A stretch of 64,000 nucleotides of DNA, from NCBI RefSeq assembly GCF_056746865.1, contig NZ_CM163382.1. One strand, 5' to 3'. Every line of letters starts with the position of its first letter. Positions within the stretch are counted from its first letter, which is position 1. The translations under genes were made by a program, and so were the position numbers. The notes under the pieces were generated by a model. The model was not told where the DNA came from. It made no database searches and saw only the letters and a list, made by a program, of their open reading frames with translations. Shown in pieces: positions 1 through 30,516 of this stretch.

Positions 1-2927
1 GATTTTATGAATCTGAACGACGCAATTTTCTCGGAACATTATTCAGTGAAGGTGGTTTACCTTTCCGGCTACTCAAAGAATCAGACAGTCGCTTTCTGGC
101 TGTTTTCTCCAGGATCCTTGGACAATATGAGCAAGCAAAGCAGTCAGGTTTTTCTGCCCTTTCGCTGGCAAGAGCTGTCATAGAAAAATCAGCGCTGCCA
201 ACTGTTTTTAGCGAAGATACCTCTGTAGAACTTATCAGTCATATGGCTGATAACCTCAATTCCTTAGTACTTACTCACAACCTAATAAATCACAAAGAAC
301 CAGTACAACAGCTTGAGAAGGTTCACCCTACCTGGCGAAGCGAGTTTCCAATACCGTTAGATGATGAAACAGGAACGCATTTTTTGAATGGACTGCTATG
401 CGCAGCCTCTGTAGAGGCTAAGCCTCGACTACAAAAAAATAAGAGTACGCGTTGCCAATTCTATTGGTCAGAAAAGCATCCAGATGAGCTTAGGGTGATA
501 GTATCTCTTCCGGACGAAGTTTCCTTTCCTGTAACAAGCGAGCCGTCAACTACGCGCTTTGAACTTGCCATTTGTGAAGATGGTGAGGAAGTCTCTGGCC
601 TTGGGCCAGCCTATGCTTCTCTGGAAAACAGACAGGCAACAGTTCGATTACGTAAAAGCGAAGTGAGATTTGGCAGGCAAAATCCATCGGCAGGTTTGTC
701 GTTAGTGGCTCGTGCTGGAGGGATGATTGTTGGGAGCATTAAACTTGATGACAGTGAAATTGCCATTGGTGAGGTGCCGTTAACCTTCATCGTTGATGCA
801 GATCAATGGCTGTTACAGGGACAGGCTTCTTGCAGTGTGCGAAGCAGCGATGTTCTGATTGTGCTCCCTCGGGATAATAGCAATGTTGCTGGTTTTGATG
901 GCCAATCGAGGGCAGTAAACGTATTAGGACTAAAAGCACTACCTGTGAAGGGATGTCAGGACGTTACAGTTACAGCAAATGAAACTTATCGGATTCGCAC
1001 CGGAAGAGAACAAATCAGCATCGGAAGGTTTGCTCTAAATGGAAAGCGTGCAAGCTGGGTTTGTCATCCAGATGAAACATTTATTGGTGTACCAAAAGTC
1101 ATTTCTACACTACCGGATATTCAAAGCATTGATGTAACGCGTTACCTGAGCGGAATTTCAATTGAGCAATGTCATATACAAGAGATGCTGGGGGCTCAAT
1201 ATCTTTCTATCCGTAATAGTAAGAATGAAACGCTCTTGCGTCGCAAAATCGGTATTTTGCCTGCTGATTTCAGTATTGAGATAAAAGGTGGAATACACGC
1301 AAATGAAGGCACTATCGTAATCACCACACAGCATCCTTGTGTAGCAAAACTTAAAGATAAAACATTGGAGGCTACACGTAAGCGTACTGAGGGGCGAACA
1401 GAGATACAACTCAAAGCGGAAGGGGTACCTCCGGCATTTATTACATTACAAGTTCTGCCTAATTTGGCGGCTGACCCCATCGATATTGAGTTACCTTTTC
1501 CCGCTAAAGGCTGTCTCGCTCTTGATGTAAACGGACGTCCTCTGGATAAAAACATTACGCTGCATGATCTGCTGGGTTCCAGAGCGTTTCTGTTCTCCAG
1601 AAATGGCGAGCCGACAAGATATACATTGCAGTTGCATTTGCGCTCCGTTAGTGGATTACAGGCATGGCACGAATGGTGTTATACGGCGTTGAGCGATCGT
1701 CCTGTTGAATTGAATCTCTATAGTCTGCGCGAACATATTGAGAACCTGATTTCACTTGAGGCAGGTATTGACCAGGTTGTTGAGATGCGTATTACGGGGG
1801 CGGGTGTGGTCATGGCCTGGCAAATTCGTCGCTATAAATACAGTCTGCGCTATGATTATGAAAAAGAACTATTACTCAGCCAGTCAGTGAACCATCGTGC
1901 TGGACAGATTCCTTCCCCCGTTATCATGCTGTTAAGTGAACCCGAGAGGAAATCCATCCCCTTAGCATCAAGAATGAGCGAGGGAGTGCCTGTCGGTGAA
2001 TATGAGTTGAGCTCAATCGTTAACAAAAATGGACCGTGGTTGGTTGTCCCTAAACCGGGTGAAGAGATGGCTTTTCGTCCCTGCTTCATTCGTGGCGAAT
2101 CTTCGTTACCGGTAGAAGAAAGCAACATCCGCTCATTGCAGAAAGCGACCCAGCTTTTTAATCCACAGGCAGAAGTTAATACCATCACACTGGTTCTCGG
2201 ACAGATGGCTAACGATCCTGCCCATTCCGGCTGGCAATTTATGCGTAGCCTGTACGATCAATTTGGTTATTTACCACTGGCAACCTTTGAAGTATGGCGT
2301 GCACTGGTGCAGCATCCGCAGGCATTGGCAATGTCGCTCTTCAAATTTGAAATGTCAGCAGAGTACCTGAGTCGTATTGAGAATGAGTTCCCTATTCTAT
2401 GGGAGTTTTTCCCCATCTTTGAGATCAAAGCGGCATCTGAGCGTTTCAAATTGTTCCTGAGCCAAAAAGGTGCACCGGAGGAAACCCAGAAATTACTGGT
2501 TACTAATATGTTTCAACGGCTGGGGCTCGTGTTCCCGACATATGCCGATGAAATTGAGAAATGGTTAAGTAACGGACATCTCCCCCCGTCTATTCCTGAG
2601 TCTTTTGTCCACGTGTGGTATCAGGAGCTTTTACGTGAGCATAGTGAAGCTCAATGGCCAGAGTACGGCAGCAAGCGGCTGCATAGCTGGATGGCATCAC
2701 AAAAAAATCCAGTGATTGGTATTAATCCTGACGCAAATCACCGCTATTCCGTGGCCTTGTTACCCGTCTTCGCTGCAGCTGTGGCAAGCGGAAATGCTTC
2801 TTTTGAATCTGTATTTGACCGTAAACCCGGTGCCGTATTTTTCCTGAGGCAAGTCAGGGATTTCGATTCCCGCTGGTTTAAGGCCATCTTCCAGTGCAGC
2901 CTGTTGCGTTATGTTGCTAAAAAATAA
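1..2927 (+). CDS. Large protein of unknown function, 5-prime partial (continues upstream of the window); first gene of candidate two-gene defense operon
   Basis: Reading frame is open from position 3 through the ORF-track ATG at 243 with no stop, and the upstream translation (FYESERRNFLGTLFSEGGLPFRLL...) looks protein-like; stop at 2925-2927; no catalytic motif I can name. Confidence 0.7.
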   Translation, partial: FYESERRNFLGTLFSEGGLPFRLLKESDSRFLAVFSRILGQYEQAKQSGFSALSLARAVIEKSALPTVFSEDTSVELISHMADNLNSLVLTHNLINHKEPVQQLEKVHPTWRSEFPIPLDDETGTHFLNGLLCAASVEAKPRLQKNKSTRCQFYWSEKHPDELRVIVSLPDEVSFPVTSEPSTTRFELAICEDGEEVSGLGPAYASLENRQATVRLRKSEVRFGRQNPSAGLSLVARAGGMIVGSIKLDDSEIAIGEVPLTFIVDADQWLLQGQASCSVRSSDVLIVLPRDNSNVAGFDGQSRAVNVLGLKALPVKGCQDVTVTANETYRIRTGREQISIGRFALNGKRASWVCHPDETFIGVPKVISTLPDIQSIDVTRYLSGISIEQCHIQEMLGAQYLSIRNSKNETLLRRKIGILPADFSIEIKGGIHANEGTIVITTQHPCVAKLKDKTLEATRKRTEGRTEIQLKAEGVPPAFITLQVLPNLAADPIDIELPFPAKGCLALDVNGRPLDKNITLHDLLGSRAFLFSRNGEPTRYTLQLHLRSVSGLQAWHEWCYTALSDRPVELNLYSLREHIENLISLEAGIDQVVEMRITGAGVVMAWQIRRYKYSLRYDYEKELLLSQSVNHRAGQIPSPVIMLLSEPERKSIPLASRMSEGVPVGEYELSSIVNKNGPWLVVPKPGEEMAFRPCFIRGESSLPVEESNIRSLQKATQLFNPQAEVNTITLVLGQMANDPAHSGWQFMRSLYDQFGYLPLATFEVWRALVQHPQALAMSLFKFEMSAEYLSRIENEFPILWEFFPIFEIKAASERFKLFLSQKGAPEETQKLLVTNMFQRLGLVFPTYADEIEKWLSNGHLPPSIPESFVHVWYQELLREHSEAQWPEYGSKRLHSWMASQKNPVIGINPDANHRYSVALLPVFAAAVASGNASFESVFDRKPGAVFFLRQVRDFDSRWFKAIFQCSLLRYVAKK

Positions 2928-2939
2928 AAAGGAATAAGG

Positions 2940-5900
2940 ATGACTACACGCTATTTTTCGTCACTTATTGAACAATCGTTGTCTCGTTCAACTGAAGCAA
3001 CGCTCAGTATCATGGGCGTTACCAACCCGCAGCTGCGTGAACATCTCGCGCAACAAATGGGGGCTGATTGTGGGAAACCGGGCTCATTCCTTGCTTCTCC
3101 GGTATTCCAGCAAATGTTTGGCTGGAAGGAGTCAAACCACACGATGCGCAGCCTGACGGAAGGCAACGCATTGTTGAGCAAAGCAGTGGTTGATTCACTG
3201 GATGATCAGAATAATGGCCGGTACCGGTTTGGTGCTGACTGGAGGCCTTTTACGCACCAGTTAGCCAGTTGGAAAGCTTTGCTGGAAAAGAAACATTCAG
3301 TGGTGGTAACCAGTGGTACGGGTTCAGGTAAAACGGAATGTTTTATGGTACCGGTGCTGGAAGATCTTTACCGGGAACTGCATGAAAATGGCAACAATCC
3401 GTTGGTCGGTGTCCGAGCCCTTTTTCTCTATCCATTGAACGCCCTGATTAATTCACAGCGCGAGCGTCTGGATGCCTGGACGCGTGGTTTTGGTACAGGG
3501 ATCCGCTACTGCCTTTACAACGGCAACACCGAAAACCTACACGCTTCGGTAAAAAGCGAACAGGCAAAAAGGCCGAATGAGGTGCTCTCGCGCGAAAAAA
3601 TGCGTGAAGAACCTGCGCCGATTCTGGTGACCAACGGCACGATGCTGGAATATATGATGGTTCGCCAGGTCGACGCCCCGATTATCCAGCAATCTAAAGC
3701 ACAAAAATCACTACGCTGGATTGTACTGGATGAAGCGCATACCTATGTAGGGTCGCAGGCCGCTGAACTGGCGCTCCAGCTGCGTCGTGTGATGACCGCG
3801 TTTGGCGTGACACCAGATGACGTGCGCTTTGTCGCGACCTCTGCGACCATTGCCGGCAGCGACGCTGAAAAGCAGCTGAAAAAATTTCTCTCTGAATTAT
3901 CCGGTATCCCGCAGGAGCGCATCGATGTTCTGGACGGAAGTCGGGTGATTCCTGAACTGGAACCATCCAAAAACGTTTCTGTTCCGTTAGACGAGATAGA
4001 GCAAATACCTGATCTGGATCTAAGAGATAAAAATGATAATAAAATTAAAGGGATAAGTCCTGAGCGCTTTTATGCGCTTACGCATTCCCCCGAAGCGCGT
4101 TACATACGTGAGATGTTGGTCAAACAGCCCAATCCGATGAAGCTGGATGAGATAACAGAGCGGTTACACGTGCTGACAAAACAGCATTACAGCCAGCAGG
4201 AAGTACTGCGTTGGATCGATGTCTGTTCAGGGACTCAACCTAATGCAAAGGATCCCGCATTTCTTAAAGTCAGGGCGCATATCTTCCAGCGTAATACCCA
4301 GGGAATATGGGCTTGTGTTGATAAAGATTGCAGATTAAAGCACGGTACACCGCTCGACAAAGGCTGGCCCTTTGGCTATGTGTATGTGAACCAGCGACAA
4401 AATTGTGACTGTGGAAGCCCTGTATACGAAGTTGCATTCTGTAATGATTGTAATGAGCCTCATCTTCTGGCACGGGACAAAAAGGGCAAACTAGTCCAGT
4501 GGGAAAATAAAGGTGGCGATGAATTCTCTTTGCAGGATGAAGTACCTGTTGAACATGACGCTACAGAAGAAAAAGTCGAAAAAGAGAACAGTTTTCAGCC
4601 TCCGTTGATTATTGCCGCAGGAGAGACCAGCGAGGCAGGTTATACCCTACAACGCCTCGACCGTCAGACGCGCCGTATTGGCGTTATTAACAATGACAGC
4701 ATTCCGCTGATTATTAATGATATTGAACAGGTTTGTAGTGCCAGTGGCTGTGGCTACAGAGGCATGAGTGGGAAACAGCCCTTCCGGCGTGCACTATTAG
4801 GTGGGCCATTTTACGTTACTAATATCGTGCCCACCGTTCTAGAGTATTGTCAGGACTTTACCAGTGATGAAGGCAAAGAGGGCGTCGGACCAGATTCGTT
4901 GCCAGGACGAGGTCGTCGACTCATCACCTTTACAGACAGTCGACAAGGGACAGCCCGAATGGCGGTGCGTATGCAGCAAGAAGCAGAACGCAGTCGCTTA
5001 CGCGGAAGCGTAGTCGAAATTCTCAGCTGGCATCAAAGGACGCAAACGTCTACAGCGCCGAATGCCAATGCCGATCTGGAAAAATTAGCGGCCAGGGCGA
5101 AGCAAGCCCGTGAGCAGGCAGAAGAATATCGAAGCTGGGGAATGCCAGACCAGGCGAAATTGTCACAAGCACAGGCTGAACAGCTTGAACAGGCTTATCA
5201 GGCTGCAACCGGTGGGAAAGCTGCGACTATCCTGGTATCCCGAACCTGGACGGAGATGGTTAACGAGCTTAAAGAGAGAGCCGATATCCGCGGGCCGGTT
5301 CTGCAATATAACCATTATCTTAAGCCTGAAGTGTTTAATGAAAACGGCGGCCCCCTTAAGCTTTCTGAAATGTTGTTGTTCCGGGAATTCATGCGTCGCC
5401 CTAAACGGACTAACAGCCTGGAAACACAGGGGCTGGTTCAGGTTGGTTACCAGGGGCTGGAGAAAATACATAAGAGCCCCTTGCACTGGCAGGAAAAAGG
5501 ATTAACGCTGGATGACTGGCGCGATTTTCTCAAGGTTACGTTGGATCATTACGTTCGCGAGAGCAACTTCACACAGCTGGATGATGAGCTGAAAAACTGG
5601 ATTGGTAGCCGTTTTTCATCAAAATTCGTCCGTAACCCGGAATCAAAAGATCCTGAAGATAATCAGAACAGACGCTGGCCTCAAATTCGTAATGGCAACG
5701 TATCCCATCGTTTAGCGAAGTTGCTGATGCTGGGGGCTGGATTCAAAACCGTCAATGCGGCAACTATTGATATTATCAATACATGGCTGAAAGAAGCATG
5801 GGCCCAACTTACCGGACCGCTTGCAGTACTGAAACCCGATGGCAACCGTTTTTATTTACCGAAAGAGCATATGACTTTTTCTTTAATCACGGATGCCTGG

Positions 5901-8900
5901 ATTTGCCCGGTAACCAATAAAATCCTGGATACGGCTTTTAAAGGCTTAACCCCTTATCTGCCTACCCATATTTCGTTCGAGCATCTTACCCTGGCGCAAT
6001 ATGACACTTTTGTCGCGCAGAAAGTCACAATGCCGGAAATCTGGAAGCTGGATCGTTCACAGGAAGACTACGCAGAGGGTCTGGCAAAAGCACGCGACTG
6101 GGTCAGCCATGATCCGCTGATCGCACAATTGCGGTCGGAAAACGTCTGGACAGACATTAACGATCGTGTCGTGGAAGGCGGCTTCTACTATCGTACTGCC
6201 GAGCACTCTGCCCAGCAGTCGTCAGAACGTCTGCAAAGCTATGAAAAGATGTTCAAGAATGGGCAACTAAATGTTCTCAACTGTTCCACCACCATGGAAA
6301 TGGGGGTTGATATCGGGGGTATTACTGCGGTGGTAATGAACAACGTACCGCCACATCCGGCCAACTATTTACAGCGCGCCGGGCGAGCCGGGCGTAGTAA
6401 AGAATCACGCGCGATCTCTTACACCCTATGTAAAGGTAACCCACACGACCAGCAGGTTTTTGCCAACCCGCTCTGGCCATTTGAAACCATGATCCCGGCA
6501 CCCATGGTCGCGATGAACTCCGCCCGACTGGTGCAACGTCACGTCAATGCATTATTACTGTCCGACTTTTTATGTAACGTTATTGGCGAAACCGATAAAG
6601 AAAAAACCAGCCTCGATAGCCTCTGGTTTTTCGGTGAAGATGACGGGCAGTCAAAATGCGAACGCTTTAAAATCTGGCTGGAACGTCCGGTTCTTGATAT
6701 CGACACGGCGCTGGAACGGCTGGTGAAAGGTACGGCGTTGCATGGTGCAAGAGCCGAATATCTGCGGGATAAAACAATCAACGCGATCACCTTCCTGCAA
6801 CAGCGGTGGCTCTCCGTTTATCGCGATCTCGTGACACAGGAGCGTGAGTCGCAGCCGCAAACGCCTTATCGTAAGCGCATAGAGCTGGAGAAGAAACGGC
6901 ACTGTGGCGAGTATCTGCTGCGCGATCTGGCTGCCAGAACCTTCCTGCCGGGATACGGTTTCCCGACAGATGTAGTGACGTTTGATAACTTCACGATGGA
7001 AGATTATATCCGCGAAAAATCGCAGAAAAGTCGTGATAAAAAGGACCGTGAAGATAACGTTTCCCGTTATAAAGGATTACCTTCCCGTAACCTCGGTGTT
7101 GCCATTCGTGAATATGCACCGGGAGCAGAGATCATCCTTGATGGCCGTGTCTTCCGCTCTGCCGGTGTCTCACTGCACTGGCACAACATTAATGCTGATA
7201 CCAATGAAGCCCAGCGTCTGGATTGCGCCTGGCGCTGTCACAAATGCGGGACCATTGGCTATGAAGAGGGGATGAGCAGTTCCGGGATGCTCTTTTGCTC
7301 CAATAGCGCCTGCGGCGAAAAAATAATCATGGATAATCGCCGTCAGGTGCTGCAGCCTGCCGGGTTTGTCACCGATGCACACGCTCCGGTAACGAACAAT
7401 ATTGAAACCATGAAATTCGTCCCGGTTGTCCCCGCGTGGGTCTTTGTTAAAGCAGAGCCCGTACCGTTGCCTAACCCGCTAATGGGTTATATGGCTTCTG
7501 GGGCTGATGGGCATGTTTTCCAGCAAAGTTTGGGGGAAGGTGGACACGGTTATGCATTGTGTCTGAGCTGTGGCCGTGCTGAGTCGATGCTGAATGAAAA
7601 TGATGCGCCGAAAAGTATGGAAGCTCACTATCCACCGCGTCCGGGTAAAGCGGATCGCGACAGCCAGAATCATCGTCTGATTTGCCCCGGTTCGACGGCA
7701 CTCATGAAGAATGTCACCCTGGGCGCACTGGCGCGTACCGATGTCTTTGAAATGGTTCTGCGCAAACCGCAAAACGGCGAGTATCTGCCAGATAACACAG
7801 AGGAGGGGCGGATTGTTGCCATGACTCTGGCGGTTGCTCTGCGTCAGGCGCTGGCGGGCGTTCTGGGTATCTCCGCCGCAGAACTCGGCTATTCTGTACG
7901 TCCGGTCAGACTGGAGGATGGGCAATCGGTATTAGCCGTACAGCTTTATGATGTGATCAGCGGTGGTGCAGGTTTTGCCTCCAGCGCACCGGTACACATT
8001 GAAGCTATATTGCAGGGAATGGTGAAACAGTTAGGCTGCCGCCATTGTGAGACTGCATGTAGTGAATGCCTGCTTGATTCCCAGACTCGCCACGATCACG
8101 ATTTGCTGGATCGCAAAGCGGCGCTGGCCTGGCTTGGCGATGACTTCACGTATTACATCGGTTTACCGGATGAAGAGACATTCTCGCTGCCGGATGCCCG
8201 CTACTGCCCTGGCGCCATTGGCGATACGATTCGCCGGGCGATTAACGAAGGCGCTGAAAAGCTCACCCTGTGGATGACCGGCGCGCCCAATGAGTGGGAT
8301 TTATACGCACGTCAGTTCCGCGCGGCGGTTCAGAACTATCGGCTAAAAGACAACGTCGAGGTCGATCTTGTTATTCCTACGGGAGTGGATGACCCGGACC
8401 TGTTGCATGAACTATCGCAATTTACTGCGCTGGGTGTGCGGCTGTGCCATGTTGAACAGGATCTGCAATTACCGATCGTTGCCCAGGTCACCTTTACCGA
8501 TCGCGTGATGACGCTGGCCTCTCGCAGCCAGCAGGCAACGATTCCGGGGCCGGAGTGGCACCTGAATGACGAACTGGTGGTGCGTAGTCTCGGTTATAAA
8601 ACGGTAGAACTGAACGAGTTTATTCTGCCGGCTAAAGCCACCAACGCTGTCGAGCGGGTCAAAGACATTCAGATCCACAAACAGTTGAATGGACCACTGT
8701 CGCAGTTTGGGCAACGCTTCTGGGACGTGCTGTTTAACGACCATGAAGAAGCGCAGTCACTGATGAATAACACGCGAATTACCGGCGTTCACTATACCGA
8801 TCGCTATCTGCAAAACCCGGTTGCGCTGGCGTTGTTGGGATCAATTCTGAGACCGCTAAAAACAAAGCTGACCGATGGCGCTGAAGTGACGCTGGATACG

Positions 8901-9284
8901 CTATTTAAAGATAAAGATCGCCCCGGTAACCGGCCTTTCCATGACTGGATGAGCATAGCGGATTTTCAGGATTTCGCTGATCAGTGGTTTGCTGCTGCGC
9001 TGGGCAGGCCGGTAGAACTGACGGTGTTCGACTCGCCGCGCGATATCCCTCACCATCGTAAACTGACGGTGACTTTTGAGGATGGTCAGGTATTGAAGAT
9101 CCGCTTCGATCAGGGGATGGGCTACTGGCGCATCAACTTTTCATCGCAATGGCATTACTTTGATTTCCGCGATGACGTTTCTTTCCAGTTAGTCAAAATG
9201 GCTCAGGCCTGCAAGGAAGGGAATGTCGCCAACAGCGAAGAGAGTTGGGCAACGGATGTGCTGGTGGAGGTGATCGCCTCCTGA
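2940..9284 (+). CDS. Giant (2114 aa) DEAH-box superfamily-2 helicase with C-terminal Cys-rich Zn-ribbon (DUF1998/MrfA-like) region; candidate DruE-like defense helicase
   Basis: Walker A GTGSGKT (aa 126-132, nt 3315-3335), DEAH box VLDEAH (aa 264-267, nt 3729-3740), SAT motif, helicase C-domain motif QRAGRAGR (nt ~6372-6395), Cys clusters [31 protein letters not shown] (nt ~7220-8075); starts 13 nt after gene 1 stop behind aaggaataagg RBS. Confidence 0.85.
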
Positions 9285-9340: not shown

Positions 9341-10387
9341 TTATTTGAGATATTCATCGAAAATGTCGAGTAATTCTTGATGTATACACGGCCATTCCTG
9401 ACCTAAATTGACGGTACACAAGCCAATATCGAAGCCATTAATTTTATAACGATGTTTCACTGCGGTATCTACGTGGGGATATATTAATAATCCCCCTATG
9501 TTTTCGCCATTTTCAGGCTTTAACGACCATAAGTAATTCATCAGTTGATAAAGATTTTGCGAATGAAATTTTTCTGTTCCCATTCGTCGTGAAAAAATGC
9601 TCTTATAGTATTTGGCGTCAACGATAAGTATTTTTTCTGATGAGCGAATGGTGATGTCAGTTTCCATTCGAGGTAACAAATTAAGTGACTGATCCGATAT
9701 ACTCGATGCATCCCATTTTAAATAAGAGCGGGTTGTGTTTGCAGACGTTAATTCACGACGGCAAAATTCATAAAGAAACTTTTGATAAAGTAATGACATC
9801 TCTTTTTCGTTTCTTTCAAAATCATAGAAACGGTAGTGTCCTTTGTTTTGACCTGGAATAGAATTATTGACGATGAATTTGCAGACACTGATAACGAATT
9901 TATAATAACGCGTATTTTTTCCGCCATTCAGATAGCTGAAATGCTGCGGAGTTAAATGAAGAGTGCTAATGCCCGGTAATTTTCTATAAAGTGAACGAGC
10001 TTCATCTCTGATAGTTGAATTTAACTTTTCATGCTTAATTAATATGGCTAATGTGCTTTTTATAATTCGGTTAGCCAGCGTGTCTTCATTAAGCATATCA
10101 AAAGTACTGACGGTTTTCCCATGATTAAGATGGAAGCCGCGTATTGTTTTAGCAAACTCTATTCGCCCTTTGATGCCAGGAATGATCTCGGTATTAGGAT
10201 TGTAATCAAGCTCAAGCCCTCGGCGTGAAAGCTGTAAAACCCCTTTATTTAATACATACCCCAGGATATCAAGAAGATTGTTACCGGGTATGGCTTCAAG
10301 GTTTGCCTGCTTAATTTCCTGTAAATAACCCCATGCATAGGTAAGCATGTAATAGATATTACGGACAGGTATCACGGGCTGTTCCAC
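9341..10387 (-). CDS. mcrC: McrC, specificity/nuclease subunit of the McrBC modification-dependent (type IV) restriction system
   Basis: Translation matches McrC as I recall it (..EQPVIPVRNIYYMLTYAWGYLQEIK..); start taken as GTG at 10387, overlapping the mcrB stop by 1 nt; AT-rich gene. Confidence 0.9.
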   Translation of the reverse strand: MEQPVIPVRNIYYMLTYAWGYLQEIKQANLEAIPGNNLLDILGYVLNKGVLQLSRRGLELDYNPNTEIIPGIKGRIEFAKTIRGFHLNHGKTVSTFDMLNEDTLANRIIKSTLAILIKHEKLNSTIRDEARSLYRKLPGISTLHLTPQHFSYLNGGKNTRYYKFVISVCKFIVNNSIPGQNKGHYRFYDFERNEKEMSLLYQKFLYEFCRRELTSANTTRSYLKWDASSISDQSLNLLPRMETDITIRSSEKILIVDAKYYKSIFSRRMGTEKFHSQNLYQLMNYLWSLKPENGENIGGLLIYPHVDTAVKHRYKINGFDIGLCTVNLGQEWPCIHQELLDIFDEYLK

Positions 10388-11766
10388 TATGAGTCCCCTA
10401 ATAATTTGTTGGTCCATTTCTGTTGTTTATAGGGGTCATCAAAGAAATATTCTTCGAGTAAAGGGGCGATATCCGTCATCACAATTTCATTAAGCCATTG
10501 CGTATCCGGAGAGGTGCCATCTTCCAACCCACAGCAGAAGTAACTATGCCCAATGCGGAATCCTTTCCCAAGGATAGTGGCCTCTTTGCTGATTTCCTGG
10601 TTCAACTCGTTCATTTTTTGGCATAAAGACTCAACAAATGAAGGTTCTGCTTTTTTATTCAGTAAAAAATTCCGGAACTGTGGTGTATCAAAACCTGGCT
10701 CAATATCTATGAAAGAAAATCGTCTGCGTAGGGCATAGTCAACAACGGCCAGAGAGCGATCGGCAGTATTCATTAAACCGATGATATAAACATTCTCCGG
10801 GACATAGAATCGTTCTTCATCGTTTTCGGAGTAGGTTAGGGGAACAGACCAGTTTTCACCTCGTTTATCATGTTCCATTAACATCATCACTTCGCCAAAT
10901 ACTTTACTGAGATTGGCACGATTGATTTCATCTATAATAAAAATATACTTTTTCTCTGGCTGCTCTTTAGCTTGCTGACAAAAATTGTAAAATATGCCGT
11001 CTTTACGTCGGAAGCCGACGCCATTCGGACGATAGCCCTGTATAAAATCCTCATAGCTATAGGATTGATGGAACTGAACCATATTGACGCGTTGCGGAGC
11101 CTTTTCTCCTGTCAGCAAGTAAGCCAGACGGCGTGCAACAAAGGTTTTTCCAACGCCGGGCGGCCCCTGGAGGATAATATTTTTTTTGATGGTTAATCGT
11201 TTGAGTATCGTCTCTATTGTGGTTTCAGGGATAAACAAATCATTTAACGCATCTTCCAGACAGTATGATTCAGTTTTTGACATAGGTGGAATAACACTCT
11301 TGCCAGAATTAAATATTAATTTATAGTCGTTGATTATGTTGTCCAGCATAGAGGCAAATCGGGTGTAATCAATACCCTGTGAGACTTTTTGGGAACAGGC
11401 GTAATAGGACTGTCCGTATTTTTTAGGATATACACCCGAAGTTGCCTGAAAATACTCTGCGATTGTTTTAGGTATGTCTGAAGAGAACTGCCATTGGGCA
11501 TGTGGTTCATTCGTGTCGCTTATACCATAAGCCAAAACCAACTCATCAAAATCTTTATAATAGAGAATAACGGGATATATACCGTTAGAAGCTTCCTGAC
11601 CTTCTCCAAGAAATGCAAACCAGGGAATAGACGTAAAATTACCATAACCGAAACTCAATTTTACTCGCAGGTTACGGTAAGACGTTGGATAATCTTTAGT
11701 GGATTGCGAACGTTGTTGCTGTGCTTGCTTAATAAATTTTTCAATCCAGGGTTGAATAGATTCCAT
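10387..11766 (-). CDS. mcrB: McrB, GTP-binding 5-methylcytosine-DNA recognition subunit (AAA+)
   Basis: Translation MESIQPWIEKFIKQAQQQRS.. with Walker A GPPGVGKT; start at the 7th codon of the track ORF (459 aa). Confidence 0.9.
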   Translation of the reverse strand: MESIQPWIEKFIKQAQQQRSQSTKDYPTSYRNLRVKLSFGYGNFTSIPWFAFLGEGQEASNGIYPVILYYKDFDELVLAYGISDTNEPHAQWQFSSDIPKTIAEYFQATSGVYPKKYGQSYYACSQKVSQGIDYTRFASMLDNIINDYKLIFNSGKSVIPPMSKTESYCLEDALNDLFIPETTIETILKRLTIKKNIILQGPPGVGKTFVARRLAYLLTGEKAPQRVNMVQFHQSYSYEDFIQGYRPNGVGFRRKDGIFYNFCQQAKEQPEKKYIFIIDEINRANLSKVFGEVMMLMEHDKRGENWSVPLTYSENDEERFYVPENVYIIGLMNTADRSLAVVDYALRRRFSFIDIEPGFDTPQFRNFLLNKKAEPSFVESLCQKMNELNQEISKEATILGKGFRIGHSYFCCGLEDGTSPDTQWLNEIVMTDIAPLLEEYFFDDPYKQQKWTNKLLGDS

Positions 11767-11927
11767 AAGATATGCCTTCCTCATTGCTAAGCCTCTATTA
11801 TCGCTTTCGCAACGTACTGAAACAATAGATTTTTACTGCAAAATCAGACTGGTAAATATTTACTGAGGGGGAAAGTTTCTATTGAGTCAGTGGAAGGCTC
11901 CCGGTGGTTAACCGGGAGTAAACGCTG

Positions 11928-12269
11928 TTACGCGACTTTCTGTTTACCGGCAATCACTCCAATAAACGCCTGCACCTGCTTTTGTTTACGCGCCGACAGT
12001 TTGCACACCTGGCGTAGCGACTGCATCAGTTCGCTCTCCTCGGCGGCGGGTGGTTGGGCGGTGAGGACAATACAGCCTTCCATCACTTTGACATCTACCG
12101 CCGTGCCAGTGGCAAAACCGGCGGCTTCCAGCCACTGACCTTTCAGGGTGATGGCGGGAATACGGCTGTAATCCGGGTAGCGACTCGCATAACCGACGGT
12201 GACATGACGGTTATTTGCCGGGGAGACTTCTGCTTCGAACGGTTGTGCAATAGAATGCGTGTCAGTCAT
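11928..12269 (-). CDS. symE: SymE, SOS-induced type I toxin (AbrB-fold RNA endonuclease-like)
   Basis: Translation [34 protein letters not shown].. (113 aa) inside the 132-aa track ORF. Confidence 0.85.
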
Positions 12270-12340
12270 AACTGCTATTCTCCAGGAATAGTGATTGTGA
12301 TTAGCGATGCGGGTGTGTTGGCGCACATCCGCACCGCGCT
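12255..12340 (+). ncRNA. symR: SymR antisense sRNA (antitoxin of symE), approximate position
   Basis: Established knowledge: SymR is encoded antisense to the symE 5-prime UTR and start codon; ends not determinable from sequence alone. Confidence 0.4.
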
Positions 12341-12342
12341 AA

Positions 12343-12362
12343 ATACCTGTATATATCATCAG
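12343..12362 (-). promoter_or_regulatory. Putative LexA operator (SOS box) in the symE promoter
   Basis: tacCTGTatatatcaTCAGta on + strand, CTGA-N8-ACAG on the symE strand, 7/8 match to the CTGT-N8-ACAG core. Confidence 0.45.
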
Positions 12363-12496
12363 TAAATATGGGGAAAGTCCAGCTAAAAATAGAATAAAAT
12401 GGGCAATTTCTGGAATGATTTAAATATATTTATGTGGGTTATGATTGGCGTGAAATAATAAAAAGCGCACCGGAAAGGTGCGCCAGAAAATAATGT

Positions 12497-13891
12497 TCAG
12501 GATTTTTTACGTGAGGCTTTTTTACCCCCGCTAGCTGCGCGTTCAGCTTTGATTTTTTCCAGCAACGCGGCGGCGCTGTTTTCTCCGCTGATCAAATCCG
12601 GGTTTTCGGCCCGCCACTGGGCGGTAAGTTCACCACGGAACGCTTTTGCCAGGATGGATTGCGTCAGGTTGTTGACGCGGGCTAAGGCGTTGTTGACCTG
12701 TTTTTCTATGGTGTCGGCGTAGGCGAAGAGTTGCTCGACGCGGCGAACGATTTCGGCTTGTTCTTTTACTGGAGGTAATAAAACAACTTGGGATTTGATA
12801 TCTTTTCCTGAAATACCTTTTTGACCAGAAGTTGTTTTCACGCAGTTCATCATTGCATTTCGTGCTGAGGGGGATGAAAAAAATATTTCGATATATTCTG
12901 GTAAAGCATCTTTGGTTAATCGAGCTCGAATAAGTTTATCAGGATATAGCAAATTTTGATGTTGTAATTTTTTCAATAACCCACAAACACCAACAAATTC
13001 TAAACTTCCGTTATAGCGAGTAAATAAAAGATCTCCATCTTGTAATTTGTGGCGGTTTAGTTCACTTTCTGAACATTCTAGAAACCGAATATCGTTTTGA
13101 TCTACATGGCCAGCACGTACAGAACTAATGCGTAGTATTGGATGACCAACACCACTTTCATTTGGCTTTGATGAAAGACCATTACGTAATTCAGTTAAGA
13201 TAGATTCAAAATTTAACTTCTTAAATACAGAATGTTGCGGCTCAAAATTACGCCATTTTTCTGTCAATTTTCCATTAACTGCGCCCCCCAATACCGCTTG
13301 ACGAAAACGTTTCAGGATTTGTGGGATTTGCTCAAAACGTGCTTTGGTGCTGTCTACCTGCGCCAGCAGCGTATCGAGTTTTTCAGCGATGATTTTTTGT
13401 TCGGCAAGTGGTGGGATTGGTATATTTATCAAATCAAAGCTTGCCGGCTTAATATTATTAATATTTGCACCAGCAGAAAGTGATGAAATTTTGTTTCGAT
13501 AAAGAGAAGATTTTGTGAAATGAGCAATAAAACCAGAAAATATAAGTTTTTCAGGACGTAATACACCGCAAAATGCGCCGAAACTACATTCAAATGGTAG
13601 ATGCTGATGTGCGGATTTACCAACTACGGATTTGCTCCCTGATGACATTGCAATAACAATATCTTCAGGAGATATTTTTTGATTTTCTTTAACAAGATTT
13701 TTAGGAACAAAAACCAAGTCCGTAGTATCAAACTTGCCATTCTGAATATTGTTCGCACGGATAAGAGGCAAATAATCATCTTTTAGATAATTTATTGCCT
13801 GCTCTTTTTTATACGTTACTCCTCGGATTAGAGTTGTGACCGTAGATACTGGGGCGATAACCCACCCCTCCGGCAATTTCCCCGCACTCAT
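12497..13891 (-). CDS. hsdS: HsdS, type I restriction-modification specificity subunit (EcoKI family)
   Basis: 464-aa translation MSAGKLPEGWVIAPVSTVTTLIRG..; AT-rich target-recognition regions; stop overlaps hsdM. Confidence 0.9.
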   Translation of the reverse strand: MSAGKLPEGWVIAPVSTVTTLIRGVTYKKEQAINYLKDDYLPLIRANNIQNGKFDTTDLVFVPKNLVKENQKISPEDIVIAMSSGSKSVVGKSAHQHLPFECSFGAFCGVLRPEKLIFSGFIAHFTKSSLYRNKISSLSAGANINNIKPASFDLINIPIPPLAEQKIIAEKLDTLLAQVDSTKARFEQIPQILKRFRQAVLGGAVNGKLTEKWRNFEPQHSVFKKLNFESILTELRNGLSSKPNESGVGHPILRISSVRAGHVDQNDIRFLECSESELNRHKLQDGDLLFTRYNGSLEFVGVCGLLKKLQHQNLLYPDKLIRARLTKDALPEYIEIFFSSPSARNAMMNCVKTTSGQKGISGKDIKSQVVLLPPVKEQAEIVRRVEQLFAYADTIEKQVNNALARVNNLTQSILAKAFRGELTAQWRAENPDLISGENSAAALLEKIKAERAASGGKKASRKKS

Positions 13892-24100: not shown

Positions 24101-24613
24101 TTAAATCGCAGCTTCCATTTCCAGCATCACCGGATGGAAACGGCGTTTAAAGTAGATAAGTCCGTGACCTTCTGCACTGAGGATGATGTTTTTAATCTCC
24201 ACCAGATACACCAGATGTGTGCCAATTGCCTGCACATCGCGGATCTCACCTTCAAGACTGGCCAGCGAACCTTTTAGCACCGGCTGCGCCAGCGGACCTT
24301 TTTGCCAGCATGAGAGGCTAAAACGCTCTTCCATCGCCATGCCTGTCATGCCCGCGAAGTGGCGTGCCATCAGTTCCTGCTCATGGTTGAGGACGTTGAC
24401 GCACAACTTGCCGTTGCCCTGAAAAACCGGGTTCATCGCACTGTTGGCGTTAATGCACACCATCAGCGACGGTGGTGTATCCGTGACCGAGCAGACAGCC
24501 GTTGCCGTAATCCCGCATTGTCCGGTGTCGCCCTCGGTGGTGATAATATTTACCGCTGCCGACAGGCTGGCCATCGCGTCACGAAAGCGCAGGCGTTGTT
24601 CATCTAATTGCAT
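24101..24613 (-). CDS. hpaC: HpaC, NAD(P)H-flavin oxidoreductase component of 4-hydroxyphenylacetate 3-monooxygenase
   Basis: 170-aa translation; position immediately after hpaB; flavin reductase family. Confidence 0.85.
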   Translation of the reverse strand: MQLDEQRLRFRDAMASLSAAVNIITTEGDTGQCGITATAVCSVTDTPPSLMVCINANSAMNPVFQGNGKLCVNVLNHEQELMARHFAGMTGMAMEERFSLSCWQKGPLAQPVLKGSLASLEGEIRDVQAIGTHLVYLVEIKNIILSAEGHGLIYFKRRFHPVMLEMEAAI

Positions 24614-24630
24614 CTTAACCTCCTGCTGCG

Positions 24631-26193
24631 TTATTTCAGCAGCTTATCCAGCATGTTGATATCGTCGTTGTTGTGCAGGTGCGGCACAGTCCAGCCGTTC
24701 TGGTCGTATTCCGACAGGCAGCGATCAACCATCGCCATCATCTTGTCCATATTGCCGGAGCTTTGTGCCTGGCGCAGACACTGCAGGCGAATCTCATCCT
24801 GGCTACCGGAGTAGTTGATTTCATACAGTTCGTGGCGACCACCAAACTCGCTGCCAATGGCGTCCCACATCAGTTTGAGGATCTTGATGCGCTGGACGTG
24901 ATCCATACCATTCGAACCGCGCACATACTTCGCCAGATACTGGTCGATCTGCGGATTGTTCAGGTCACGGGCACTGGAAGGGAGGTAGATCAGGCCACTG
25001 GTAACGTTGCGTTCGATAATGTTTTTGATCTTCGCGTAGGCCATTGGTGCCAGTACGCGATAGGTTTGCAGTGCGGCATGATCCGGTAAATAAGCCCCGT
25101 TGACCCACGGCGTCGCTTCAGAACACATCGAGTCACTCAATGCCCAGAAGGTGTTGCGCCACGCCACCACTTCACCGAGATCGGCCTGCACACCACGGAA
25201 CTCCAGGGTGCCGGTACATTCGAGTGATTTTTTCAGCAGTGCCGTAATGAAGTCGAGTTTCACTGCCAGGCGCACACAGGCTTGCAGCGGATACATACGG
25301 GCAAAACCGCCTTCCATCGTCCAGCGACGGCAGCGATCAAAATCGCGGTAGATCAGCACGTTTTCCCATGGGATCAGCACGTTATCCATCACCAGAATCG
25401 CATCATTCTCATCGAAGCGGCTGGAGAGCGGGTAGTCATACGGTGAGCCGGTAGCACCCGCGACCATCTCATAAGAGGCGCGGGAGATTAATTTCACGCC
25501 ATCAGCATCCATTGGCGCAACGAACATCAGCGCGAAGTCCGGGTTTTCGCCCATTACTTGTGCCGAGCCGAAGCCAACCATGTTGTAGTGAGTCAGCGCC
25601 GAGTTGGTGGCAACCACTTTCGCACCGCTAACGATAATCCCGGCGTCAGTCTCTTTTTCCAGCTTGATGTAAACGTCTTTCACTTTATCGGTCGGCAAAT
25701 GACGATCGATCGGTGGGTTAACAATCGCGTGGTTAAAGTAGAGGCCAGTTTCCTGAATACGGGTATACCAGTTACGGGCGTTCTGCTCGAACTGACCGTA
25801 AAAGCCCGGATTCGCGCCCAGTGCGCAACCGAAAGCAGCTTTGTAGTCTGGGGTACGGCCCATCCAGCCATAGCTCAGGCGTGACCACTCAGCGATGGCG
25901 TCGCGTTGCTGGCGCAGGTCGTCGGCACTTTTCGCCACGCGGAAGAATTTATGGGTATAGCCGCCGCTGCCGGTGTCGGTGTTCCAACACAGAGAGTCCT
26001 GCATCTCCGGTTTGTGCAGCGCGTCGTACAGTTGGGCAACAGACGCTGCCGCATTACGAAATGCCGGATGAGTAGTGACGTCTTTCACTCGCTCGCCATA
26101 GATATAGATCTCGCGACCATCCTGCAGGCTTTTCAGATACTCTTCCCCGGTGAACGGACGTTGGGTACTGGCGCGGAAATCTTCTGGTTTCAT
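24631..26193 (-). CDS. hpaB: HpaB, 4-hydroxyphenylacetate 3-monooxygenase oxygenase component
   Basis: 520-aa translation MKPEDFRASTQRPFTGEEYLKSLQDGREIYIYGERVKDVTTHPAFRNAAASV.. Confidence 0.9.
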   Translation of the reverse strand: MKPEDFRASTQRPFTGEEYLKSLQDGREIYIYGERVKDVTTHPAFRNAAASVAQLYDALHKPEMQDSLCWNTDTGSGGYTHKFFRVAKSADDLRQQRDAIAEWSRLSYGWMGRTPDYKAAFGCALGANPGFYGQFEQNARNWYTRIQETGLYFNHAIVNPPIDRHLPTDKVKDVYIKLEKETDAGIIVSGAKVVATNSALTHYNMVGFGSAQVMGENPDFALMFVAPMDADGVKLISRASYEMVAGATGSPYDYPLSSRFDENDAILVMDNVLIPWENVLIYRDFDRCRRWTMEGGFARMYPLQACVRLAVKLDFITALLKKSLECTGTLEFRGVQADLGEVVAWRNTFWALSDSMCSEATPWVNGAYLPDHAALQTYRVLAPMAYAKIKNIIERNVTSGLIYLPSSARDLNNPQIDQYLAKYVRGSNGMDHVQRIKILKLMWDAIGSEFGGRHELYEINYSGSQDEIRLQCLRQAQSSGNMDKMMAMVDRCLSEYDQNGWTVPHLHNNDDINMLDKLLK

Positions 26194-26443
26194 GTCGACC
26201 TCTACAGTATTAATCGGAATACGATTGTTAATTTTGTGTGTTGTTTTTGTTATTCAATTGAAGCTTGCAGGGGCGATTACGGGAAGAGACTTTTGGGACA
26301 ATGGCTGGTACTTTTCAGGTCGGGTACGGTTTTGTGATCGAGGTCGCTTTTAGCGATTTTTGACGTTACTAAATCCCCTTGCTCCAGGCGGAGAAAGGGG
26401 AATAGCAGGTGGTGCCTGGTTTCCCGTTAAGGCTAAGGGATTT

Positions 26444-27334
26444 TCACGTCACAGGTACTTTTTTGGCACGATAAGCACTGGGCGAGCAACCGACTAAGCG
26501 ATAAAAAAAGCGCGCAAAATAAGCCGGATCCTTAAAACCGAGTTGCCAGGCAATATTGTTCACGGCGTTATCAGAAAACAGCAGCAGCCGCTTGGCTTCT
26601 CGCAGCTGCCTGTCGAAAATCAACCGTTTTGGCGGACGGTTGGCAAAGCGACGGCAGATGTCCGTGAGTCGTGATTCGGTGATATGCAGTTCGTTAGCGT
26701 AATCCGGTACTGTCCAGTGCTGATGAAAATGGCTTTCAATCAGCATATGAAAACGCTGGAACAGTTTTAATTCTCCGCGCATCCCGCTGGCGGCATGGTC
26801 GTCGAGTTTTGCGTTACGCAGCAGTAGGGTGAACACTGCCTGTGCCAGGAGCGTCAGGGTGTGTTCCCGTCCAGGCAGTTGTTCCACCGATTCCCGCTCT
26901 ATCAGTTGCCAATAGTGTTCCAGCGCCGCCAGTTCGTCGGGTTTATCTGCCAGTGACAGGCAAATCCCCGGCAGGCCGAAGGTTTCCCGAGTGCCCGGAT
27001 ACAGAACTTCCAGCAGGGGCCAGATCAGATCTTCCCGTACCGTCAACACATGACCGTCGGCGTCAGACTCCGTAATAAACGCATGAGGTACTGACGGCGG
27101 CGTCAGGACAAACAGGGGCGCTTCCACCGAGTAGCGATGATCGTCAAGCTGTAGCTCAATCTGTCCGCTATTGAGGAAATGCATCTGAAAGTACTGTTCG
27201 TGGCGATGTGGCAGCATATGGCGGCCAAAAAATGCCGCCATGCGGGCGAACGACTGATAATGCACATCGTCCGTACCCAGGCTTTCATCGTACTCTTTGC
27301 TGATATCAATATTGGCAATCTGACGGTCACGCAT
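26444..27334 (-). CDS. hpaA: HpaA, AraC/XylS-family activator of hpaBC
   Basis: 296 aa with C-terminal AraC-type HTH (..AWQLGFKDPAYFARFFYRLVGCSPSAYR..). Confidence 0.85.
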   Translation of the reverse strand: MRDRQIANIDISKEYDESLGTDDVHYQSFARMAAFFGRHMLPHRHEQYFQMHFLNSGQIELQLDDHRYSVEAPLFVLTPPSVPHAFITESDADGHVLTVREDLIWPLLEVLYPGTRETFGLPGICLSLADKPDELAALEHYWQLIERESVEQLPGREHTLTLLAQAVFTLLLRNAKLDDHAASGMRGELKLFQRFHMLIESHFHQHWTVPDYANELHITESRLTDICRRFANRPPKRLIFDRQLREAKRLLLFSDNAVNNIAWQLGFKDPAYFARFFYRLVGCSPSAYRAKKVPVT

Positions 27335-27343
27335 CGTCGTTCC

Positions 27344-28720
27344 TTACGGGGTCGCTCGCGGACGGGAGGACTGCATTGGAATCGCCCAGATAATCCCCGC
27401 ACCAATCACCAGCAGCGCGGCAACAAACCACAATCCACTGTTAAAGCTGCCGGTCAGATCTTTCAACCAGCCGATCATAAACGGACTTAATGCTGAACCA
27501 ATGTTGCCAGTGGCGTTGATCACCGCAATACCGATCGCTCGTGCCCGCAGGCTGATGGACTGATCCGGTGTTGTCCAGAAAATCGCCATTGCGCTGAATG
27601 ATCCGGTCGAAGCCATAATGATCCCCAGCATCTGGATCATGTTGTGATCAGTTGCCGAAGCCAGTAACCAACCAGCGGCAGCGAACAAATAAGGAAGGGC
27701 GGTGTGATGCCTTCGTTCCTGGCGGTGATCTGAGTGACGGCTCCAGTAAATCATCCCGAGAATGGTACAAATCTGCGGTACGGCGGCCAGCAGGCCGATG
27801 GTGATATTACTGCTGCCCTGATTAAAGCTTTGCAGGATCTGCGGTGTCCAGATGCTGATCGCACTAAGTGTGTTGGTCAGGCAGAAATACGCCAGGGTAT
27901 ACATCATCACCACCGGAGTGAAGATCTCCCGCCACATGCTGCGTTGTTGCATGGCGTGGTGGCTGATGGCTCCCTCTGGCTGAACCAGCGTCAGACGATC
28001 GTTATCCATCATCTCTTGCAGGCATTTTTTGTCTTCTTTCGTCAGCCACTTAGCTTTGTCCGGTGAGTCATCAAGCCAGAACCACACCATGATGCCGAGT
28101 AATACCGACGGGAAGCCTTCCAGCAAAAACAGCCACTGCCAGCCTTTTAATGCCATTACGCCATCCAGCGACAAAATGTAGCCGGAAACGATCGATCCCA
28201 ACGCTGTCGTTACCGGCATTGCCACCATAAACAAGGCGTTGGCACGGGCGCGGAAATAGGCCGGAAACCAGAAGGTTAAATACAGCAGAATGCCAGGCAG
28301 AAAGCCGGCTTCGGTAATGCCAACCAGTATACGCAGTACGTACAAGCTGGTGGGGCCAGTGGCAAACATGGTGGCAGTAGAGGCGATGCCCCAAAGCACC
28401 ATGATGGTGGCGATCCAGCGCCGCGCACCGACAATACTCAGCATAATGTTGCTGGGAATGCCGAAGATGACATAAGCGGCGTAGAACAGGGTGGTGGCGA
28501 GGCCAAACATGGTGGCGCTCAGACCGAGGTCGCGTCCCATCGTGAGTCCGGCAAAGCCGATGTTGATGCGATCAAGGAACGAGAAGATAAACAGCACGAA
28601 CAGAAAGACGATCAGGCGGCGAAACAGCTTCTTAATAACCGCCTGTTGTCCGGCAGTCAGCGCTTTATGCTGATTCGCCGGATCGATACTCTCCGGTATG
28701 GCAGGTGAGGTGTCGCTCAT
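27344..28720 (-). CDS. hpaX: HpaX, MFS 4-hydroxyphenylacetate transporter
   Basis: Polytopic MFS protein; start taken at MSDTSPAIPES.. inside the 478-aa track ORF. Confidence 0.8.
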   Translation of the reverse strand: MSDTSPAIPESIDPANQHKALTAGQQAVIKKLFRRLIVFLFVLFIFSFLDRINIGFAGLTMGRDLGLSATMFGLATTLFYAAYVIFGIPSNIMLSIVGARRWIATIMVLWGIASTATMFATGPTSLYVLRILVGITEAGFLPGILLYLTFWFPAYFRARANALFMVAMPVTTALGSIVSGYILSLDGVMALKGWQWLFLLEGFPSVLLGIMVWFWLDDSPDKAKWLTKEDKKCLQEMMDNDRLTLVQPEGAISHHAMQQRSMWREIFTPVVMMYTLAYFCLTNTLSAISIWTPQILQSFNQGSSNITIGLLAAVPQICTILGMIYWSRHSDHRQERRHHTALPYLFAAAGWLLASATDHNMIQMLGIIMASTGSFSAMAIFWTTPDQSISLRARAIGIAVINATGNIGSALSPFMIGWLKDLTGSFNSGLWFVAALLVIGAGIIWAIPMQSSRPRATP

Positions 28721-28744
28721 TTTTCTTCCTCTAATGGGATTTTT

Positions 28745-28894
<150 letters not shown>

Positions 28895-28900
<6 letters not shown>

Positions 28901-29683
28901 CACGTCGGGCTTAATCGCTGTAGCCTGCGCACCAAACCGTGCTGCCAGCGCTTCGGCGGCGCGGGCGAGCAGGGTGGTGTCAACGCCGACGGCGACAAAC
29001 AGCGCGCCCAGTTCCAGATAGCGTTTTGCCAGTTGCTCATTGGCGATCAGGATCCCCGGCGCTTTGCCCGCTTCGCGGATCTGCACGATCGCCTGCTCAA
29101 TCGCGGCCTGTACTTCCGGGTGCTGAGGATTACCGGCATAACCCATATCGGCGCTCAGATCCGCCGGGCCGATAAACACGCCGTCGACCCCTTCCACGTC
29201 CAGAATCTGCGGTAAGTTCTTCATTGCCTCACGCGTTTCGATCTGCACCAGCACGCACATTTGATCGTTGGCTTTTTGCAGGTAATCAGGAATACGATTC
29301 CAGCGCGAGGCTCGGGCCAGCGCACTGCCCACACCGCGAATACCGGCGGGGGGATAACGGGTGGCGCGTACCGCTTCACGGGCTTCGTCAGCGTTTTGAA
29401 CCATCGGCACCAGTAAGGTTTGTGTGCCGACATCCAGCAGTTGTTTGATTTGCACCGGATCGTTCCACGACGGACGTACCACCGGCTGGCTGGGGTAGGG
29501 CGCAATCGCCTGTAGCTGGGTGAGCACGGTTTGCACGTTATTCGGCGCGTGCTCACCGTCGATCAATAACCAGTCGAATCCTGCTCCGGCCAGTAACTCT
29601 GCGCTGTAGCTGCTACTTAGCCCCAGCCATAATCCGATCTGCGGGCGGCCTGCTTTCAGCGCCGCTTTAAAACTGTTTTCCAT
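28895..29683 (-). CDS. hpaI: HpaI, 2,4-dihydroxyhept-2-ene-1,7-dioate aldolase (HpcH family)
   Basis: Translation from [48 protein letters not shown]..; the N-terminal extension in the track ORF overlaps hpaH and is discarded. Confidence 0.85.
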
Positions 29684-29693
29684 CGTTCTCTCC

Positions 29694-30497
29694 TTAAACA
29701 AAGCGGCAGCTAATGGAGCCCATGTTGCCGTAATCGACGTGGAAGGTATCGCCCTTACGCGCCGGAACCGGGCGGGTGAACGAACCGCCGAGAATGATTT
29801 GCCCGGCTTCCAGTTGTACGTCATACGGTGCGAGTTTGTTCGCCAGCCAGGCCACGCCGTTTGCCGGATGATTTAGCACACCAGCGGCGACGCCAGTTTC
29901 TTCAATCACGCCATTGCGATACATCAGGGCGGAGATCCAACGCAGATCCAGTTCGTCTGGTTTGATCGGACGACCGCCGAGGATCACTCCGGCGTTGGCG
30001 GCGTTATCAGAAATGGTGTCGAACACTTTGCGCGGGCGCTGGGTTTCCGGATCGATGTTGTGGCAGCGGGCGTCGATCAGCTCCAGCGCCGGGATCACGT
30101 AGTCCGTGGCGTTGTAGACGTCGAACAGCGTGCAGTTTGGCCCACGCAGCGGTTTTGCCAGCACAAAAGCCAGCTCCACTTCAATGCGCGGCACGATAAA
30201 GCGATCGGTCGGGATATCGCTGCCATCGTGGAAGAACATGTCGTCCAGCAATGCACCGTAATCTGGCTCGCTGATTTGTGAGCTGGCCTGCATCGCTTTC
30301 GAGGTCAGGCCGATTTTGTGGCCTTTCAGCGTGCGGCCTTCGGCGATTTTCAGTCGGACCCATTCGCGCTGTACGGCGTAGGCGTCTTCAATGGTGATCT
30401 CCGGGTAATCCAGCGAGATCGCGCGGATCTGTTCACGCTGTTTTTCTGCCTGATCCAGACGCTGGGCGATCAGGGTGTGGGTGTGTTTATCGAACAT
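29694..30497 (-). CDS. hpaH: HpaH, 2-oxo-hept-4-ene-1,7-dioate hydratase
   Basis: 267-aa translation [43 protein letters not shown].. Confidence 0.85.
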
Positions 30498-30516
30498 AGC
30501 GATATCCTGTGGCATT

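Follow-up and report, generated by a model that had tools for sequence, protein, structure and literature searches.

Gene content and surroundings of the symE locus

The window, that is, the whole stretch of 64,000 nucleotides that was analyzed, carries a gene of 113 codons plus stop on the minus strand at 11928-12269, with its ATG at 12269 and its stop codon ending at 11928. Two RefSeq records with identical coordinates list this coding sequence (CDS) as symE (protein WP_000132601.1). It is flanked by mcrB on one side (10387-11766, minus strand) and by hsdS on the other (12497-13891, minus strand), and it lies in a defense island with the order Druantia III druH/druE (243-9284), mcrCB, symE, hsdSMR, and mrr. 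The spacer between symE and hsdS comprises 227 bp. After hsdS, a terminator scan detected a terminator-like hairpin with a T run on the minus strand (12464-12484), composed of an 8-pair stem with 6 GC pairs followed by TTTTATTATT. This hairpin, read from 12484 to 12464, points to symE as a transcription unit of its own.

The segment from 11800 to 12500 was 100% identical to the E. coli K-12 chromosome over its 701 bases, as well as to other strains. The difference from K-12 is confined to the wider context: the window has an intact Druantia III pair as well as the hpa operon, and in the K-12 record these are absent or a pseudogene. The Druantia pair occupies 243-9284 on the plus strand and consists of open reading frames of 894 and 2114 aa, which PADLOC assigned to DruH3 and DruE3 of Druantia type III (1557 and 2701 bits, respectively); they are the counterparts of yjiT and yjiV. 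According to the annotation of the FDAARGOS_497 record, druH extends past the left end of the window. At the position of this pair, the K-12 record retains only a 786-bp helicase pseudogene. Thus, despite the identity of the symE region, the window comes from a strain other than K-12. A complete 4-hydroxyphenylacetate (hpa) catabolic cluster was found at 24101-35278, between btsT and tsr; this cluster is not known from K-12, which would be a further sign of a different E. coli lineage. No PADLOC model matched SymE.

Several other features of the window were recorded. Rfam reported eight naRNA4 (REP/BIME-type) matches, located at 58122-58602, 50292-50485, and 62105-62181; a tandem array of five copies, spaced by about 100 nt, accounts for 58122-58602. 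On the minus strand, 49833-50152 contains three tRNA genes in tandem, all with the same score; the stretch of FDAARGOS_497 overlaps two of them, and its annotation gives both as tRNA-Leu. The lgoT gene appears to be split into open reading frames of 157 and 278 aa (37110-38471, minus strand), and in the near-identical FDAARGOS_497 record it is a pseudogene with an internal stop.

The symE gene and its product

SymE matched the Pfam family PF08845 (SymE_toxin) with 77.8 bits, against a cut-off of 29, and the NCBIfam equivalog NF010128 with 227.6 bits, against a cut-off of 132; the latter alignment covered residues 1-112 of 113. Since the family models, the identity to K-12, and the RefSeq annotation all agree, symE is both intact and correctly named. 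The claim of the original prediction that the gene is intact was therefore upheld by the 113-aa reading frame, by both family models, and by a RefSeq CDS with the same coordinates. A mechanical list of open reading frames also contained a GTG start at 12326, which would yield a protein of 132 aa; the family models, the annotation, and the spacing of the GGAG motif favor the ATG at 12269. This GGAG, the Shine-Dalgarno (SD) sequence of symE, is found at 12280-12283 on the minus strand, 10 nt before the ATG, and is complementary to positions 17-20 of SymR. An SD sequence is likewise marked in the symE leader region according to the legend to Fig. 1A of Kawano et al. 2007 (PMC1891008).

Typical type I toxins are small hydrophobic membrane peptides. 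SymE is 113 aa long and is not hydrophobic, and reviews have already termed it an atypical type I toxin (PMC4147584). A phmmer search of PDB sequences with SymE produced no match at E ≤ 10, and a Pfam search at E ≤ 10 returned SymE_toxin alone, with no AbrB or MazE model. The AlphaFold2 model of SymE, computed with an alignment of 7 close homologues, had a mean pLDDT of 50.5 and was too poor for a fold search. The likeness of the SymE core to AbrB and MazE was described by Kawano et al. 2007 (PMC1891008) and in an AlphaFold model in PMC11894785. The core is reportedly homologous to the DNA-binding domains of these proteins (PMC1891008, PMC11894785). Antitoxins with the MazE/AbrB fold differ from SymE in that SymE is the growth-inhibiting partner, and the relation is reported at the level of the fold only, with no sequence match.

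The antisense RNA SymR

Opposite the start of symE, the Rfam model RF01809 identified SymR (RyjC), a 77-nt RNA with two hairpins, at 12264-12340 on the plus strand (95.3 bits with a gathering threshold of 61; E = 8e-19; model positions 1-77 of 77). SymR is complementary to the initial 6 nt of the symE CDS (ATG at 12267-12269), to the SD sequence, and to most of the leader, and it stops 4-6 nt short of the 5' end predicted for the symE mRNA. The overlap of SymR with the start of symE had thus been anticipated correctly. Its ends had been held to be unreadable from sequence, a point that can be refined: comparison with the homologous 77-nt RNA that Kawano et al. cloned (PMC1891008) puts them at 12264 and 12340.

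The predicted fold of SymR had a minimum free energy of -37.8 kcal/mol (z = -5.3), a value equaled by none of 200 shuffled sequences. The anti-SD CUCC is located at the apical loop of hairpin 1. Among 7 related sequences, 93% of the cells of the structure were paired, compared with 24-49% in slid controls, and six pairs of hairpin 2 were changed on both sides. With just 7 SymR sequences at hand, this covariation backs the Rfam curation and does not replace it.

The -10 element of the symR promoter, TAGAAT (12251-12256, plus strand), lies inside the symE CDS, 7 nt before the first nucleotide of SymR, and is unchanged in 7 of 7 loci; no convincing -35 element was found upstream of it. A CATTCT-to-CACTCC mutation abolished SymR and left SymE unaltered (Kawano et al. 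2007, PMC1891008). The mutated site, CATTCT on the minus strand (12257-12252), overlaps the TAGAAT element.

At its 3' end, SymR forms a GC-rich hairpin followed by CGCGCU/AAAUACC, with no U tract (12335-12364), and the scan for terminators returned nothing on the plus strand. The LexA 20-mer described below begins 5 nt past the 3' end of SymR; in Kluyvera, the distance is 11 nt. Strain 884 of E. coli differs in the loop of hairpin 2 (12318-12323; 2867-2872 in its locus, L004), which is the exact reverse complement of the K-12 loop. The change, TTGGCG to CGCCAA, is flanked by the stem arms TGTG and CACA and amounts to a small inversion that keeps the stem. It explains a weak Rfam match on the minus strand at 12304-12337.

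The LexA operator and the putative symE promoter

The original prediction placed a CTGA-N8-ACAG sequence, with 7 of 8 core positions matching, about 75 nt upstream of symE. Such a sequence was present on the minus strand at 12362-12347: seven of eight positions of the SOS-box core fit CTGT-N8-ACAG, and the exact distance from the core to the symE ATG was 77 nt (12270-12346). The CTG-N10-CAG core spans 12347-12362 and reads CTGATGATATATACAG on the minus strand (from 12362 to 12347) and CTGTATATATCATCAG on the plus strand. The full LexA operator, or SOS box, for which the consensus is TACTG(TA)5CAGTA, is a 20-mer at 12345-12364, with ACCTGTATATATCATCAGTA on the plus strand and TACTGATGATATATACAGGT on the minus strand.

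The bare CTG-N10-CAG pattern occurred 22 times in the window, compared with an expectation of 13.9 ± 3.9. This pattern alone is uninformative and was therefore replaced by a matrix of 20 positions derived from the 18 E. coli LexA operators printed in PMC3009722. The symE operator is not among these 18 training operators, so that the matrix provides an independent test. Scoring with a LexA matrix had been proposed as a check on the site, and the outcome was favorable: the 20-mer reached 14.1 bits and ranked first among 63,981 positions of the 64-kb window. The next-best sites scored 9.8 bits (42194-42213, in opgB) and 9.6 bits (10645-10664, in mcrB); both lie within coding sequence, their number fits chance (about 1.5 per window), and we discarded them as LexA sites.

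A score of 14.1 bits corresponds to a probability of 3e-6 per position, or 0.2 sites expected in 64 kb; for the 227-bp spacer, the expectation is 0.0006-0.002. A site of at least 14.1 bits occurred somewhere in 46 of 300 shuffled windows, which makes the window-wide score modest when taken alone; part of the weight is therefore carried by the position of the site beside symE and by its conservation. When the validated operators were scored by leaving each out in turn, their values ranged from 28.5 bits (istR2) down to 4.2 bits (polB). The symE site ranks between uvrD (15.4 bits) and dinB (13.4 bits), with dinG at 13.0 bits. Judged by its matrix score, the symE operator is real and of moderate to weak strength. 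The heterology index (HI) published for it is 7.9, which lies below the usual limit of 15, and the LexA site of yjiW/symE goes back to Fernandez De Henestrosa et al. 2000, as cited in PMC1891008.

A generic sigma-70 scan of 11780-12520 returned no promoter at threshold for either symE or symR. The promoter hexamers of symE were therefore assigned by hand and by conservation, and the overlap between operator and -10 element rests on weak hexamers. Spacing and conservation point to a putative -10 element, TGATAT, at 12353-12358 on the minus strand, in the center of the LexA box, and to a putative -35 element, TGGACT, at 12376-12381 on the same strand, 11-16 nt beyond the interval covered by the original prediction. 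The arrangement is TGGACT-17-TGATAT in E. coli and Citrobacter and TGGATT-17-TATATT in Kluyvera, with the LexA box in register in each, and the block AAAGTCCAGCT at the putative -35 element is identical in five E. coli alleles. Transcription of symE would start at about 12344-12346 on the minus strand, giving a leader of some 75-77 nt. The location of the putative -10 element inside the LexA box predicts repression by promoter occlusion.

The module in E. coli, Citrobacter, and Kluyvera

Of 5,426 complete E. coli genomes, 2,872 matched the symE stretch, most of them at 90-95% identity. In the sampled rows of these matches, homology was mostly limited to about 11932-12400, which is the module itself. 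Similarity among the E. coli alleles fades past about 12391, roughly 10 nt upstream of the putative -35 element. Four divergent E. coli alleles contained SymR with Rfam scores of 83-94 bits and a CTGG...CAG box of 12.7 bits in the same register after the 3' end of SymR. A G at the fourth core position is also found in the ruvA, cho, and dinG operators.

Genome contigs totaling 298 Gb were searched with a degenerate SymR pattern that specified 16 bases on both strands, and 72 loci were found, a number to be read against an estimate of more than 100 random matches. The Rfam check covered the 4 enterobacterial loci; the other 68 lie outside Enterobacterales. Both symE and SymR were present in Citrobacter portucalensis (SymR, 92 bits) and Kluyvera georgiana (85 bits). 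The pattern matches in Dickeya and Enterobacter gave no SymR by Rfam. CTG-N10-CAG stood in the same register after the 3' end of SymR in both Citrobacter and Kluyvera; the Citrobacter site was weak (7.0 bits), and the Kluyvera site scored 17.9 bits. In Kluyvera, the core is kept in a spacer of different sequence, and this speaks for selection on the operator and not just for shared ancestry.

The neighbors of the module were compared as well. A type I restriction-modification (R-M) gene, either hsdS or hsdR, faces the promoter side of symE in five E. coli alleles and in Citrobacter. The neighbor on the other side varies and may be mcrBC, GmrSD, yjiS, or druE. The order in Citrobacter is hsdR-hsdM-hsdS-symE; a DruE/YjiV-like helicase comes directly next, and mcrBC is missing (loci L083-L085, 1-12339). 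Kluyvera georgiana has symE, SymR, and the LexA box with no R-M gene within 6 kb; its symE neighbors (locus L080, 5000-6400) encode an HTH_3 protein, a 244-aa protein without a Pfam match, and TauD. Thus, the module is autonomous, and its adjacency to R-M genes is best explained by a common hot spot. A search of plasmids yielded 4 records, two of them of chromosome size (about 4.9 Mb) and 0 predicted to be mobilizable, and so gave no clear sign of a plasmid-borne copy of symE. One paper on the SOS response of Salmonella makes no mention of symE.

Published regulation of symE

In work on a sequence identical to this one, symE mRNA could hardly be detected unless mitomycin C was given, and it was most abundant 60-90 min after treatment (PMC1891008). 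Loss of SymR raises SymE protein more than symE mRNA (PMC1891008), by seven-fold and about three-fold, respectively (review PMC4147584). Repression by SymR is independent of Hfq and RNase III, SymE is degraded by Lon, and LexA, SymR, and Lon act additively (PMC1891008). An RNA-seq study found a 2.5-fold dependence of symE on lexA (lexA3) and a 1.5-fold induction by AZT that was not significant. With ciprofloxacin, the log2 fold change of symE was up to 3.2.

The activity of the protein is disputed. RNA cleavage by SymE was proposed, and reported indirectly, by Kawano et al. 2007 (PMC1891008) and has been repeated in reviews (PMC4147584); the product name in NCBIfam and RefSeq is "endoribonuclease SymE." As summarized in PMC11894785, Thompson et al. 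2022 observed no RNA cleavage by overexpressed SymE but rather genome-wide, non-specific DNA binding and condensation of the nucleoid.

Discussion

The symE gene, SymR, and the LexA operator of this window form a well-studied E. coli locus that has been known since 2000-2007. With high confidence, we regard it as the symE-symR module of the E. coli chromosome, in which a DNA damage-inducible gene is silenced at several levels. What we show ourselves is where the gene, the RNA, and the operator lie and what they are, how the operator scores, and that the three are jointly conserved. LexA dependence, repression by SymR, control by Lon, and toxicity are taken from the literature.

At the level of transcription, a LexA dimer would sit on 12345-12364, over the putative -10 element of symE, so that symE would be transcribed only after RecA-stimulated cleavage of LexA. 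At the level of translation, SymR, whose promoter lies within the symE CDS, is perfectly complementary to the leader, the SD sequence, and the first two codons; its pairing keeps ribosomes from binding and makes the symE mRNA modestly less stable. The protein itself is degraded by Lon, as published. Soluble SymE that accumulates in spite of these controls stops growth, and the newer evidence suggests that it does so through non-specific DNA binding and condensation of the nucleoid.

Three other explanations bear on parts of this picture. Under the same regulation, SymE could have a different effector activity, namely, that of the mRNA endoribonuclease of the 2007 model; it would then be a toxin of the RNase type and would recycle damaged RNA once SOS has been induced. 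The 2007 proposal, the reviews, and the product name in NCBIfam and RefSeq speak for it, but overexpressed SymE bound DNA and compacted the nucleoid without cleavage (Thompson et al. 2022, as summarized in PMC11894785), and the SymE core is reportedly related to the DNA-binding AbrB and MazE domains. The sequence itself cannot decide the activity of SymE, and on the published evidence we consider an endoribonuclease unlikely. The "type I toxin" label of the original prediction has to be qualified: the antisense architecture agrees with it, and repression by SymR and toxicity of SymE were shown by Kawano et al. 2007 (PMC1891008), while the RNase model that goes with SymE is the part disputed by Thompson et al. 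2022 (as summarized in PMC11894785).

The CTGA-N8-ACAG sequence might also be a chance match in an AT-rich spacer, with symE free of direct control by LexA. The abundance of CTG-N10-CAG in the window (22 sites, with 13.9 expected), the 46 of 300 shuffles that reach 14.1 bits, and the merely 1.5-fold induction by AZT are what such a coincidence would lead one to expect. They are outweighed by the 0.0006-0.002 sites expected in the spacer itself and by a core that is kept in register in three genera while the spacer sequence changes; the published LexA site, LexA dependence, and induction by DNA damage refute a chance match in practice, and its probability is close to nil. A functional tie between symE and its type I R-M neighbors, for example, an SOS-induced coat of SymE on DNA that eases the restriction of newly repaired, unmodified DNA, would account for the type I R-M gene at the promoter side in five E. 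coli alleles and Citrobacter and would mean that symE is no autonomous module; an association with R-M systems was already noted by Kawano et al. 2007 (PMC1891008). However, Kluyvera georgiana has the module with a strong LexA box and no type I R-M system within 6 kb, a terminator-like hairpin separates hsdS from symE, and a hot spot of integration common to both, the immigration control region, explains the adjacency equally well. We therefore give little credence to a role of a SymE coat in type I R-M.

The DNA damage-inducible symE-symR module resembles other systems in part. The K-12 symE (yjiW)/SymR (RyjC) locus (PMC1891008) has an identical gene, 77-nt RNA, symR -10 element, and LexA box. 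The remaining SOS-induced type I pairs of E. coli, tisB/IstR-1 and dinQ/AgrB, likewise have a toxin gene under LexA repression and a small antisense RNA that prevents its translation (PMC4147584). TisB and DinQ are small hydrophobic membrane peptides, in contrast to SymE, a soluble protein of 113 aa that is AbrB/MazE-like according to published analyses. IstR-1 is encoded beside tisB rather than opposite to it (PMC1891008), whereas SymR is a true cis-antisense RNA over the ribosome-binding site and start codon. In the hok/Sok system, as with SymR, a cis-encoded antisense RNA overlaps the toxin mRNA in its 5' part. The antitoxin RNA of hok/Sok is short-lived, and RNase III cleaves the duplex, whereas SymR is present in 10:1 excess over the mRNA and RNase III is dispensable (PMC1891008).

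A further role may be imagined for the LexA operator, which could serve a second time at the 3' end of SymR. This double duty is proposed because the 3' hairpin of SymR lacks a U tract and the LexA 20-mer is only 5 nt away; it is quite improbable. If it were true, bound LexA could help to stop or trim the transcription of SymR on the plus strand. Once LexA is cleaved, SymR transcription would continue into the symE promoter; the antitoxin would then take another form, or this transcription would collide with the initiation of symE.

The symE locus of this window adds no new biology, and symE/SymR remains a standard example of an SOS-controlled gene under antisense regulation. The value of the analysis is practical: a three-part module was recognized from raw sequence, exact coordinates were assigned to SymR and the operator, and the contested label of SymE was flagged.
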